This document shows positions 40,960 to 44,707 of a stretch of 57,465 nt of DNA, piece after piece. Location: the NCBI GenBank assembly GCA_011042725.1, contig DQWD01000338.1, positions 1-57,465 of the forward strand, read 5' to 3'. Origin of the DNA: Candidatus Aminicenantes bacterium. GTDB taxonomy: Bacteria > Acidobacteriota > Aminicenantia > Aminicenantales > Aminicenantaceae. Each line of letters begins with the position of its first letter. Positions within the stretch are counted from its first letter, which is position 1. The notes under the pieces were generated by a model. It had not been told where the DNA came from and searched no databases. It saw only the letters and a program-made list of their open reading frames with translations. A program made the translations under genes and the position numbers.

Positions 40960-41478
40960 TTTTATTTGATTTGTTCTCCTCGAAACATAGGTAATGGGAT
41001 GCTGAAAAAATTTTAATTTTTAATCTCGACTTCATTTATAACAGATTCAATACCAAGAGAAAAGTCAATGGTCAAAATTTATTATCCCCCACCCTAAAAG
41101 AGGCATGGTATCCGAGCCTAATTAAAAACATTGCCAGCCCCATAATTGGCTAAAAATAGCTTTAGTTTCAACCCGCTACCCGGAGGCAAGAAAACCATCT
41201 TGACCTTCGAGACGAAGAAAAAAAATGACTTTCGCTCCCAGGCAAAGTAAGCAGTATTTACTTCCAGGAAATATTTATTAATCGCCATAGGGATTATCTT
41301 CTGGCAGATGGAGGCCAAAATACAACTTGAAAAAATCAGTCTAATGAGTAATCATCTACAGGATGACAAAATCCGGGAAGGCTCCGGTTTCCAAGGATTA
41401 ACTACCAAGAGGCTAGTCATTATCGAGAAAAATGGAGAAAAATATTCACCCTCACCAGCCCAGAAAAGAGGTCTGAAG

Positions 41479-42114
41479 ATGGCCCCACCCCCATGCTCCC
41501 TGGCCTTATTAGCCTCTCTTCTCAAATTCTTGAAGAACTCCTTTGATGACCATTACCTCTTGCGTGAAGTCCCTCAAGTGCGCAGTCAGATCCAAGCTTC
41601 TAAATTCATCATCCGTCATGATGTCCAACGGAATTTACCTTGGGCCCTAACCCTGGCCCAAAAAGAAGCAGAGGCAGGCCTTCGCAGCAGCTTTTTAGTC
41701 GATCTGAATTCGCCTGATTTAGGGGTTCACGAGAGGGAGGCCAAAACCATTTTGCATCAAATTAACGACTTAGAGCATGAGGTCGGTTTGCTGCTTCCTT
41801 TGCCTGAATATTGCCCCCCGGCCAAAACCAGACCAACTAATTTTATCCCCCACCTCTCTATTCTGATTCACCAAATGGAAGAATTATTAGAACAGCCTAT
41901 TTTTTCCCTGGCTTTTCCCGACGAGTCCCTAATGTATCCCGAACAATCCTATTTCCTGGCAACCAAAATATGTGCTTCCTCAGCTTTTTTAAGCCAGTGG
42001 CTGCTTTCTGACCGCCTCCATAACTTGCATCCCCAAGTTTGGGAGAGAGAATTCTCTTCTCCTCCCGACAAAATCCTCCAACTAGTCTTGCACCCTGAAC
42101 TTTGGAGAGATTAA
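41479..42114 (+). CDS. Degenerate polysaccharide-deacetylase-like protein
   Basis: IIRHDVQ..ALTLAQKEAEAGLRSSFLV..LEHEVGLL resembles the LRHDVD..G.RSTYF..GHEIGLH family. ATG 41479 (AAGAGG RBS) is preferred over 41308. Confidence 0.55.
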   Translation: MAPPPCSLALLASLLKFLKNSFDDHYLLREVPQVRSQIQASKFIIRHDVQRNLPWALTLAQKEAEAGLRSSFLVDLNSPDLGVHEREAKTILHQINDLEHEVGLLLPLPEYCPPAKTRPTNFIPHLSILIHQMEELLEQPIFSLAFPDESLMYPEQSYFLATKICASSAFLSQWLLSDRLHNLHPQVWEREFSSPPDKILQLVLHPELWRD

Positions 42115-42157
42115 GCTGGCTCAAGGAGCCGTCCGTACTCGCTTCTCTTTAATATAA

Positions 42158-42501
42158 GAGTTTGTCCCCAAGGGAAGGGAAACAAAATCGAACGAAAGGC
42201 GAAGGAGAAGGTCGGAGCCACATTGAAGATTTAGCCTTCCGGAACCGTCCCTCAAAGGAACCCGACCGCCTCGGGTGCCGAGCGCCTATTGAGCCCGGCT
42301 CGTTTAAAGTTTTGAAACTCATATTAACTTTGAAACTCATCTTATCAGAGAATAAAGTCCAAAGATTCGAATTGATCGGGCGCAGCTTCGCCGGCGCCGA
42401 GAAGGGCCGTGAAGGAATGGCCTTAAAAATCTCGACCGAAGCGGAGACATTTTCCTTCGCCTTAACGTAGTAACTCATTCCCCTCACTTGGGGACAAAAG
42501 C
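42158..42501. mobile_element. MITE (non-autonomous IS derivative), 344 bp
   Basis: Terminal inverted repeats GAGTTTGTCCCCAAGGGAAGGGAA vs GCTTTTGTCCCCAAGTGAGGGGAA (20/24 identical), flanked by a perfect 8-bp direct repeat TAATATAA at 42150-42157 and 42502-42509; no transposase. Confidence 0.8.
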
Positions 42502-43148
42502 TAATATAAATAAGGTGAACAATAAGGAATCTTAAATTTATGCCGGAGATACTTAGCCAAAGCCCGGTCAACCAGTTCCTTCATTTTCTGTTTGGATTTA
42601 ATGGATAAAGTAGCTTGCAGTTCGGCCATCACCTGCTCCCGCTCCTCGGCTGTGGCTAACATCACCAGTTGACGATCAATCTTCTCGTCGATCTCTTCCA
42701 ATCCGGCTTCATCCACTTCGTCTTGGTTTAAAACAGCCAGGGCTTCTCGAAAATAGGGGCCTAAGGTGGTTAATCGTTTTTGATGGGGATGCACAAAAGG
42801 GGCAATAATCTGGCGTAGTTTTACTGGCGATCCCCCAGTTTTCTCGGACGACAATCCCCGGCGGCTCTTTCCCAATTGTCTCTCTCGATAGGCTTGGTAA
42901 GCCGCCAACACAAAACGCTCCACCTTGACCAGGCTAAAAGAGCGCCGCGGCTTCTTTTTAACTTGCCAGTAATCCACGGCCCGTTGCAATCCATCTAAGA
43001 CAACCCGCAGCGGAATTTCTTGGCTCAACCAACGGTCGATAAGGTAGATTTCGTGAGGGGTCAAGAGAAGGCTGCTCCGGCGCTGAGTAAGAACAAAGCG
43101 AGCAATTGTCTGGAAGTACTTCTCCCGGTTCGTCCTCTCCGCCGCCAT
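42501..43148 (-). CDS. Conserved hypothetical protein (helical; possible DnaD-like N-terminal module)
   Basis: YFQTI..F...R...LLLTP.E..LI..W...IPL..VL.GL pattern; last gene of the birA-coaX run. Confidence 0.7.
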   Translation of the reverse strand: MAAERTNREKYFQTIARFVLTQRRSSLLLTPHEIYLIDRWLSQEIPLRVVLDGLQRAVDYWQVKKKPRRSFSLVKVERFVLAAYQAYRERQLGKSRRGLSSEKTGGSPVKLRQIIAPFVHPHQKRLTTLGPYFREALAVLNQDEVDEAGLEEIDEKIDRQLVMLATAEEREQVMAELQATLSIKSKQKMKELVDRALAKYLRHKFKIPYCSPYLY

Positions 43149-43169: not shown

Positions 43170-43937
43170 TCACCGCCGATTTTTTTCATATAACAACCGC
43201 AATCCATCCAAGACAAGATCTGGTTCGTGGTAAACATTTGCTTTTTCTTGCTTAGAGAAAAACTCCGCCCATCCTCCGGTCATGACGACTTTGGTGGTGG
43301 GGCCCAAGACCTGTTTCATCTCTCTTAATATGCCTTCAACTAGCCCTTGATACCCATAGAAGAGACCGGCTTGCATACTCCCTTCAGTTGTTTTGCCAAT
43401 GACAGAGGCTGGCTGGCGAATTTCAATGCGAGGTAATTTAGCCGTTTTCTCATATAGAGCCTGCGCCGCCATTTCAATACCCGGAGCAATAGCCCCTCCC
43501 AAATAATCTCCTTGAGGTGAGATGGCATCAAAGGTCGTGGCTGTCCCAAAATCCACCACCACGAGGGGTCCCCCATACTTATGGAAGGCAGCCACAGCGG
43601 CCACCACTCGATCAGCCCCCACCTCTTGAGGATTCTCATAAAGAATAGCCATGCCTGTTTTTAGACCGGGGCCCACTACCAGAGCTCTCTTTGAAAATAG
43701 CTGGCGAGTGACCTGCTGAAAAATGGGGGTAAGAGGGGGGACAACACTGGAAATAATAGCCCCTTCAATATCTTCTTCTTTTATCTTGGCCCATGTTATT
43801 AAATCCAGAAGAATTAGCGCATATTCATCAGCTGTTTGCTCGGAATCACTATGAATGCGCCATTTCTTTAGCAATTTATCTTGTTGAAAAACCCCTAAAC
43901 TAATACTGGTATTCCCAATGTCAATAGCTAAAATCAT
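43170..43937 (-). CDS. coaX: Type III pantothenate kinase
   Basis: LAIDIGNT, ISSVVP, EVGADR, VDFGTATT and GGAIAPG motifs. Confidence 0.96.
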   Translation of the reverse strand: MILAIDIGNTSISLGVFQQDKLLKKWRIHSDSEQTADEYALILLDLITWAKIKEEDIEGAIISSVVPPLTPIFQQVTRQLFSKRALVVGPGLKTGMAILYENPQEVGADRVVAAVAAFHKYGGPLVVVDFGTATTFDAISPQGDYLGGAIAPGIEMAAQALYEKTAKLPRIEIRQPASVIGKTTEGSMQAGLFYGYQGLVEGILREMKQVLGPTTKVVMTGGWAEFFSKQEKANVYHEPDLVLDGLRLLYEKNRR

Positions 43938-44707
43938 GCGAACCCTCCTTTTCCTTTCCCCGAACGATAGCGAAGCGGATCCATTATTTCCCCCGAAGAA
44001 AAAGCTTTCGTGGCCCCCTTTGTTTTGACCACCAAGCGACCGTATCGATCAAGCCCTAAAAACTTGCCGGTAATTTTTTCCTTGGCTGTCTCAATGATTA
44101 TAGTTTCCCCGGGCTGAAACAGGCTTAATCTTTCCACGGTTTTCAAAATAGGTTCTTCACCTTGAACCTTCACCAGATTATACCATCGATTTAGGGCGGG
44201 AAATATTTTGCTTGCCAGATACTCAGGAGAAAATTCTCGATGGAGAATCATTTTCAGAGAAACGGCCGTATTCTGCAAAAAGGAAGGAAAATCCTCTCGC
44301 GCTTGATTCAAGTTCAAACCAATCCCCAAGATGACATAACTTAACCGTTGCCCGGCAAAAGAACTTTCGCTAAGGATGCCCCCTAATTTTTTCTCTTTCC
44401 AGATCAAGTCATTGGGCCACCGAATAAGAAGAGGCAAAGAATACTCTTCGGAAATGGCCTCCACCACCGCTACTCCAGCCAACAAAGGAAAAAGAGAGCT
44501 TTCTTGGGCAGGGCGAAGCAACACCGAAAGATAAAGCCCCATTCCCGGTGGTGAAAACCAGGTCCGGCCTTTGGTTCCCCGGCCGGCAACCTGTTCCTCT
44601 GCTAACACCGCAACCCCTTCTTCCTCTCCCCGTTCGGCTAGTTCCCGAAGGACATCATTGGTGGAAGAGCAAGAAGGAAGTCGAATTACTTTTTTCCCTA
44701 ATTCCAT
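43934..44707 (-). CDS. birA: Biotin--[acetyl-CoA-carboxylase] ligase (no DNA-binding HTH)
   Basis: SSTND, QVAGRGTKGRTW, RWPNDL, KLGGILSE and GIGLN motifs. Confidence 0.94.
   Translation of the reverse strand: MELGKKVIRLPSCSSTNDVLRELAERGEEEGVAVLAEEQVAGRGTKGRTWFSPPGMGLYLSVLLRPAQESSLFPLLAGVAVVEAISEEYSLPLLIRWPNDLIWKEKKLGGILSESSFAGQRLSYVILGIGLNLNQAREDFPSFLQNTAVSLKMILHREFSPEYLASKIFPALNRWYNLVKVQGEEPILKTVERLSLFQPGETIIIETAKEKITGKFLGLDRYGRLVVKTKGATKAFSSGEIMDPLRYRSGKGKGGFA

Follow-up and report, generated by a model that had tools for sequence, protein, structure and literature searches.

A miniature inverted-repeat element with ISH6-type ends at a stop codon in a Candidatus Aminicenantes genome

Bacterial miniature inverted-repeat transposable elements (MITEs) with structured interiors at gene ends include the Correia/NEMIS elements of Neisseria, RUP, ERIC and the Rickettsia palindromic elements (reviewed in PMC2229807). 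Such elements are short, multi-copy, bounded by terminal inverted repeats (TIRs) and hairpin-forming, are often co-transcribed with their neighbours, and are moved in trans by the transposase of an insertion sequence (IS). The subject of this report resembles them: a 344-bp element lying exactly at the stop codon of a conserved gene in a 57,465-nucleotide contig of a Candidatus Aminicenantes bacterium (DQWD01000338.1 of assembly GCA_011042725.1; this whole stretch is called the window below). It differs from them in an interior that is conserved order-wide, carries compensatory changes and occurs between at least two kinds of termini, and from the Correia elements, whose duplication is TA, in that its TA+G stop codon is rebuilt from an 8-bp duplication.

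MITEs derived from eukaryotic Mutator-like elements (MULEs) and Pack-MULEs offer a second comparison, sharing with our element the Mutator-superfamily mobilisation argued for below, the retention of terminal repeats only, and an interior unrelated to the transposase gene. Here, however, the host is prokaryotic, the duplications measure 8 bp rather than 9-11 bp and the repeats are far shorter, and, in contrast to Pack-MULEs, the interior gives no sign of being a captured piece of a gene. Within the prokaryotic Mutator-like transposases, ISH6 forms a sister cluster of IS256 (p-MULT 2; Guerillot et al. 2014, PMC3942029), characterized by 8-bp AT-rich duplications with the motif AANATNTT and by a single bacterial member, ISDesp5, which also duplicates 8 bp (PMC3942029). 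A later survey described ISH6 as essentially haloarchaeal and proposed it as a marker of hypersaline life (PMC9208149).

We argue that the window element is very probably a non-autonomous MITE that was moved in trans by an ISH6-family DDE transposase (a Mutator-like sister of IS256) into an AT-rich stop-codon target, and that its interior is a separate module.

Insertion at the stop codon and copies elsewhere

The minus-strand open reading frame (ORF) at 43148..42501 terminates CCT TAT TTA TAT TAG, the final G, at position 42501, being the base with which the element ends. When the element and one copy of the flanking repeat are deleted by script, the empty junction, ...TATTTATATTAAAGAGAAGCG, reads ...TAT TTA TAT TAA AGA and translates into the identical 215-amino-acid protein. 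The first-pass annotation, made from the letters alone, had placed a 344-bp MITE exactly in this stop codon with the protein unaltered, and had described 24-bp repeats that match at 20/24 positions and abut a perfect 8-bp duplication; direct reading of the sequence bears out both the coordinates and the letters. Its further proposal, that the gene gained a new 3' untranslated region (UTR) from the element while keeping its protein, is supported. The features of the insertion, in window positions, are these:

42150..42157, no strand: left copy of the target-site duplication, TAATATAA, identical to 42502-42509 at 8/8 positions and at only 6/8 if read as an inverted repeat
42158..42501, plus strand: the whole MITE, 344 bp, consisting of the 326-bp family consensus and an 18-bp internal tandem duplication
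42158..42181, plus strand: left TIR, GAGTTTGTCCCCAAGGGAAGGGAA, which with 3 further bases matches the transposase-distal end (IRR) of the IS described below
42201..42461, plus strand: conserved core, structured as a long imperfect stem that bears a side hairpin and, optionally, an AT-rich insert at its apex (covariance model R1, 154 bits, E 9e-38)
42311..42344, plus strand: 18-bp tandem duplication (TTTGAAACTCATATTA / TTTGAAACTCATCTTA), among the copies common only to that on contig C51, and absent from metagenome contig L149 at the same site
42478..42501, minus strand: right TIR, reverse complement GCTTTTGTCCCCAAGTGAGGGGAA, which with 6 further bases matches the transposase-proximal end (IRL) of the IS
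42501..42503, minus strand: hybrid stop codon TAG, with TA from the duplicated target and G from the terminal base of the element
42502..42509, no strand: target-site duplication again, right copy, TAATATAA, which read on the minus strand gives the final codons (..TTA TAT TA)

The two TIRs mismatch at positions 2, 3, 16 and 19, and a repeat search finds the same arms; the family consensus ends in GGYTTTGTCCCCAAGTGACGGGAA at both termini, and the window copy is 4.0% diverged from the consensus.

The genome to which the window belongs (G000) is a metagenome-assembled genome (MAG) of 2.56 Mb in 365 contigs, with 43% GC and 89% completeness. The search for other copies that the first-pass annotation had proposed returned 42 BLAST matches to the element in this genome, 67 sites matching the 24-bp end at 5 mismatches or fewer and 22 matches to the structured core, more than chance would give; the copies number about 30, and both the site and the 8-bp duplication vary from one to the next. 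Fifteen copies are full-length, with 83-92% identity to the window copy and 4-10% divergence from the 326-bp consensus, a divergence suggesting that what this genome holds is the fossil remnant of an old burst. Perfect and mutually different 8-bp duplications flank the copies at C3, C28, C11:3389, C234 and C131, and across all sequences compared 20/43 repeat pairs have 8/8 duplications, the 43 including a few insertions counted twice (e.g., L090/L131, L110/L132 and L036/L104). Many of the matches end at contig ends, indicating that the repeat breaks the assembly.

Both congeners examined (G001 and G002) have an empty site: the orthologue ends ...CSPYLY TAG and is followed by a 50-110 nt spacer and then by the convergent gene, and BLAST detected no copy of the element anywhere in the G001 genome. 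The insertion postdates the split from these two genomes. Ten independent metagenome contigs encoding exactly the 215-amino-acid protein all carry the gene-side junction between the 3' end of the gene and the right end of the element, and eight of them, from ENA and JGI assemblies, keep both junctions and both window-identical flanks; the insertion is apparently fixed in the sampled population. A metagenome pattern scan with the 3' end of the gene yielded 0 matches. That the element is present in many copies, that its site is empty in both congeners and that an autonomous IS shares its ends (see below) together establish it as a real MITE.

Three metagenome contigs show other arrangements. L145 and L147 (both 2149-2700) leave the element into flanks of other copies, that of C28 (AAGAAATAACTATGCAGAG) and that of C234 (AAATAATAAATAAATTAAAT), joins that reflect either recombination between copies or assembly chimeras. 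L149 (2149-2520) has both window flanks around an element that lacks the 18-bp duplication and carries ~15 interior differences, possibly by gene conversion between copies, as a polymorphic allele, or through an assembly in which repeats were collapsed.

The element encodes no transposase and has no conserved coding capacity. One frame per strand is open across nearly its whole length (window positions 42149-42571 on the minus strand and 42162-42470 on the plus strand); the minus-strand frame has no stops in 8/15 copies, and the other four frames have 4-9 stops each. A protein-coding interior was rejected because these frames, open in most close copies, are broken by stops or frameshifts in G007, G019, G014, G022 and L116, and their openness is probably a by-product of composition and of the palindrome.

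Composite and shortened forms also occur. A module of ~85 nt, consisting of ATTATTTATTGTATTGCCCATTTAGTTAGTTTAAAAAATAGGGTAAATATGTATTG followed by 2-3 copies of TGTCCCCAGTTTTC, abuts 12 MITE right ends (in G000, for example, at C11:14095-14541, C43:1179-1618 and C162:1-178); at three places a third TIR follows it, giving composite elements of 440-447 bp with 7/8 duplications, and its 3' half is also found alone at ~40 sites. A single genome, G014, holds mini-elements with the same ends in classes of 82-88, ~150, ~320 and ~470 bp (e.g., C68:37264-37345, C23:98861-98947 and C16:27822-27971). Of the core, the ~150-bp class retains no more than the basal stem; L128, L129 and L119 match the R1 model end to end with a large internal deletion.

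The element sits between two convergent 3' ends, which without it would lie ~40 bp apart. The neighbouring genes are:

41308..42114, plus strand: convergent ORF of 268 amino acids, with no family match
42501..43148, minus strand: conserved hypothetical gene of 215 amino acids, last in the row birA-coaX-orf215
43170-43937, minus strand: coaX (type III pantothenate kinase), upstream of the 215-amino-acid gene
43934-44707, minus strand: birA, upstream of coaX

The 215-amino-acid gene is a genuine one: it was matched in all 41 genomes searched (our genome and 40 of the same order) and is single-copy in 40/41, the exception being G009, with two partial matches on separate contigs. Its protein ends ...IPYCSPYLY directly before the stop, a C-terminus conserved in both congeners, and Pfam and NCBIfam searches gave no match.

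The partner insertion sequence

When one genome per species was scanned for TTGTCCCNAAGTGACGGGAA, 55 stretches were retrieved, many of them in Candidatus Aminicenantes MAGs. The largest group is labelled 'uncultured Eubacteriales', which looks like a placeholder, and many matches under this label come from the same genomes that GTDB places in the family of the window. Five public contigs have inverted ends ~1437 bp apart, delimiting a 1445-bp IS with a single ORF of 439 amino acids; the IS was found in L081, L088, L090, L103, L110, L112 and L118. Its ends, GAGTTTGTCCCAAAGTGACGGGAA on the transposase side and GGCTTTGTCCCAAAGTGACGGGAA on the far side, are the same 24-bp ends as those of the MITE, and it generates 8-bp duplications, which are perfect at full copies in L090 (CAATTCTG), L110 (GATAATTT) and L134 (TAATTCTT). 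MITE and IS match over the terminal 27 bp at each end (93% identity), the left end of the MITE corresponding to the far end of the IS and the right end to the transposase side.

Elements of ISH6, an ISfinder family, typically measure ~1.45 kb and have GGC ends. The 439-amino-acid transposase matches the NCBIfam ISH6 equivalog NF041731 over positions 1-413 of 414 (E 2e-134; 448 bits, cut-off 240), whereas the NCBIfam models for ISKra4, IS256 and ISLre2 score 53, 43 and 42 bits, all far under their cut-offs. On the IS256 models it reaches 43 bits against a cut-off of 150 (NF033543) and 18.8 against 21 (PF00872, Transposase_mut), and Pfam returned only a weak match to UPF0236 besides the sub-threshold Transposase_mut. 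The test was made on the partner IS, the MITE itself having no gene. Judged by this transposase, the MITE family is assigned to ISH6 and not to IS256. The first-pass annotation had likened the element to the IS256 family, a suggestion that holds at the level of the superfamily, ISH6 being the sister of IS256 (PMC3942029), and fails at that of the family.

The partner IS is ISH6-like in its size of ~1.45 kb, its one DDE transposase, its inverted repeats of 24-26 bp starting with GG, and its 8-bp AT-rich duplications. With IS256 it shares the Mutator-like superfamily, a similar size, a single ORF and, given the 8-9 bp of IS256, the length of the duplication, but its transposase stays under the IS256 cut-offs and the literature places the two in separate clusters. 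The window element departs from described ISH6 elements in being non-coding, with only the terminal ~27 bp in common, in its target logo, which is nAAwwTTn instead of AANATNTT, and in its Aminicenantes-type bacterial host, the family being almost wholly haloarchaeal (PMC9208149). In the literature searched, no MITE derived from ISH6 came to light.

The autonomous parent for which the first-pass annotation had suggested looking thus exists in relatives as the 1445-bp IS, while our own genome holds only decayed ends of it. These comprise an IRR (far end) with the last ~25 codons, interrupted by stops, at C196:3457-3555 (87% identity) and an IRL (near end) with 68 nt of 5' leader at C177:1098-1165 (85% identity), the only traces of the autonomous IS in the assembly, and the element is for this reason probably immobile now. 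Elsewhere, the ISH6 transposase occurs as a partial gene in G001, as fragments in G002, and intact in G004, G005, G023, G030 and G032. Exact matches to the MITE or IS ends also appear in MAGs labelled Aenigmatarchaeota, Heimdallarchaeota, Bathyarchaeia (a full 1446-bp IS), Fusobacteriales and Desulfobacteraceae (L079, L082, L112, L084 and L125), which suggests either binning contamination by Aminicenantes contigs or horizontal spread.

Several other parents were considered and rejected. An IS4-type parent with DUF4372 and DDE_Tnp_1 was raised by C120:2586-3232, where a TIR-like site (GGAGTTGTCCCTAAGTGGCGGGAA, 20/24 to the consensus) precedes a truncated DUF4372-type fragment by 180 nt; the intervening sequence is not a native 5' end and the fragment is fused to unrelated sequence, so that the site is probably a solo end or a small element inserted in a dead IS4-type copy. 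DUF4372 homologues do not co-occur with the MITE and their full copies have other ends; a search with the fragment gave no DUF4372-type match in the MITE-rich genomes G002, G007 and G014, apart from one weak G014 match to a non-transposase part of the query. An ISL3 parent, suggested by GGCT-like ends and the 8-bp AT-rich duplication, was dismissed as the end that follows the sole ISL3 fragment (C132:3-113), GGGCTCTATAGCAG, is another one. An IS256 parent within our own genome was likewise set aside, the only candidate being a 69-residue fragment at C105:1346-1552 with no matching end nearby. Solo repeat ends (C196, C63, C32, C35, C6, C1 and others) have no adjoining transposase, and a search for paired ends 1-2 kb apart in G014, G007, G002 and G009 found only MITE-sized pairs of 82-470 bp.

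The structured core

BLAST matches in relatives favour element positions 48-125 and 223-299 over the ends. The whole element folds as a long hairpin (z = -5), which alone says little, being usual for MITEs; what counts is covariation. An alignment of 14 diverse copies analysed by RNAalifold contains 44 pairs, of which 19 show compensatory changes, and 95.1% of its cells pair overall; one hairpin, for example, occurs as CCCGAC/GTCGGG, TCCAAC/GTTGGA, TCCGGC/GCCGGA and TCTGAC/GTCAGA. None of 500 column shuffles reached the observed number of compensatory pairs (mean 6.4), and sliding the partners by 1-3 columns lowered it to 3-6. G-U cells outnumber A-C cells by ~27 to 11 on the plus strand of the window.

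The AT-rich centre is optional, leaving a minimal core of ~177 nt. A covariance model of these 177 positions matches over its full length in 31/41 genomes of the order, where a single genome may hold as many as 56 matches; in 150 further genomes from the phylum, among which 11 belong to the same class, it finds nothing. Rfam gave no match up to E = 1 in 41800-42900. The same core lies between different termini (GGTTCTCTTCCATTTTGTG...) in G012, G022 and G030, so that at least two kinds of termini exist. Specifically, L039, L041 and L042 (from G022, G012 and G030) hold the core within termini GGTTCTCTTCCATTTTGTGTGGGTA..., with an 8-bp duplication, GATAAATC, in L039. A parent for the GGTTCTCTTCCATTTTGTG termini was sought in our own genome, where six solo sites occur, none of them beside a transposase.

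A possible reading, which we advance tentatively, is that the core is a structured nucleic acid under selection, most probably an RNA made from the plus strand of the window, that rides in TIR-bounded shells and has spread through the order. It might serve as a portable 3'-end module, be it a terminator, a stabiliser or an insulator that separates convergent genes, or it might be an RNA that acts in trans; in either capacity it would account for stop-codon insertions being tolerated or favoured. Alternatively, the structure may be kept for reasons related to transposition or hairpin repair.

Target choice and alternative explanations

The window insertion is not the only one of its kind. The copy at C28:11624-11949, with the duplication AAGAAATA, converts AAA TAA into AAA TAG at the end of a 724-amino-acid ORF (...FFDRFLKNKK*), again leaving the protein unchanged. 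Among the 37 elements examined across all sequences compared, five more, in relatives, have the stop codon of a long ORF within the duplication, and in one element T+GA spans the junction. In another genus (G020), a degenerate element of another subfamily, L062:1222-1497, starts one base past the TAG of the orthologue of our gene (..TAT TAT TAC TAG A followed by GGCTGTGCAAAGTG). Because of this offset and the different subfamily, it looks like an independent event on the same AT-rich gene end; the other 18 of the 19 orthologous loci examined have no core nearby. The 26 best duplications are 91% A+T and form a palindromic logo, nAAwwTTn.

As a rough null model we took all 8-mers of our genome with at least 7 A/T whose disruption would harm no ORF of 150 codons or more. 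TA|N stop-splitting sites make up 0.35% of these, and 3.5% contain a stop codon, as compared with 2/15 copies (13%) observed at stop-splitting sites, a ~40-fold excess (binomial ~1e-3). Under the reading we favour, an ISH6 transposase would have cut an AT-rich target with an 8-bp stagger. On the gene strand this target, TTATATTA, would have taken in the final codons of the 215-amino-acid gene together with the TA of its TAA stop. Repair would have duplicated the 8 bp, and because the duplication ends on the TA of TAA and the element family begins with G, the gene-side copy would come to read TAG. The enzyme is presumed to prefer AT-rich, roughly palindromic 8-mers (nAAwwTTn), which in a genome of 43% GC would be concentrated around gene ends and stop codons, and selection would remove insertions that damage genes. 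Only ~27 bp per end would then derive from the IS, the interior being a separate conserved structured module.

The placement at stop codons could instead reflect chance and purifying selection, with a transposase that has no leaning beyond AT-richness. Gene-breaking insertions get lost, leaving surviving copies in harmless places, an element starting with G or A restores a stop after TA, and the cases are few (2/15). We regard this account as unlikely, though to be taken seriously, since the harmless AT-rich 8-mers of the null model predict far fewer stop-splitting copies than the two observed, five of the 37 elements further have a stop within the duplication, and the orthologous gene end in G020 adds a third case. 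Our conclusion is that AT-rich gene ends collect insertions through target preference and purifying selection acting together. The other rivals concern the identity of the element. That an IS256-type transposase recognised its GAG...TGTC ends and made the 8-bp duplication is very improbable: IS256 does make duplications of 8-9 bp, the partner transposase gives weak sub-threshold IS256 scores, and the C105 fragment is of IS256 type, but that fragment has no matching end, and the only IS found with the ends of the MITE encodes an end-to-end ISH6 match, both IS256 cut-offs having failed, in a family that the literature separates from IS256 (PMC3942029). Still harder to sustain is the notion that the stretch is chiefly a conserved non-coding RNA gene, with the repeats and the duplication incidental and no mobile insertion. 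The strong covariation of the interior and the related element by the same stop codon in G020 speak for it; however, the core is near the orthologous gene in G020 only, by an independent insertion, Rfam has no match, and ~30 copies at different sites with different duplications, together with two empty congeners, have already refuted it as an exclusive reading, so that it survives only as a MITE carrying a structured module. The first-pass annotation had itself named as the contrary picture an element present at this site in distant relatives, with no other copies and no empty allele; what we found instead is many copies, empty sites in congeners, and one other genus, that of G020, with a related element adjoining the stop codon. 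Least credible of all is a misjoined repeat in a fragmented MAG contig: many of the 365 contigs do break inside the element, and L145 and L147 exit it into the flanks of other copies, yet eight independent ENA and JGI assemblies show both junctions and both flanks identical to the window.

Several observations weigh against the ISH6-driven insertion that we prefer. The empty allele that the first-pass annotation had suggested seeking is present in the congeners and was not found within the species, all 10 exact-protein contigs being filled. The assembly of our genome (89% complete, 365 contigs) contains no intact ISH6 transposase, which is why mobilisation in this lineage is inferred from the shared ends. 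Several full IS copies have degenerate duplications (4-6/8), and the logo nAAwwTTn, AT-rich and palindromic like the published ISH6 motif AANATNTT, is not identical to it, most duplications matching at 3-4 of its 6 fixed positions. The interior of the MITE shows no similarity to the IS, so that the element is not a simple deletion derivative. Lastly, the enrichment at stop codons rests on crude ORF calls and small numbers.

Three features of this locus are unusual: a rare IS family thought to be archaeal, a recurrent protein-neutral insertion into stop codons, and an order-specific covarying interior. ISH6 has been treated as small and nearly archaea-only, and we describe here an ISH6-type IS together with a large MITE family, apparently derived from it, in uncultured Aminicenantes-type bacteria. 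The site illustrates how a DDE element may enter a stop codon at no cost to the protein, and do so repeatably, when its target is AT-rich and 8 bp long and its terminal base is G. The core is a candidate for a new family of structured RNAs, and its natural variants number in the hundreds. For annotation, the gene ends and 3' UTRs of such MAGs are shaped by these repeats, and it is at these repeats that their contigs break.

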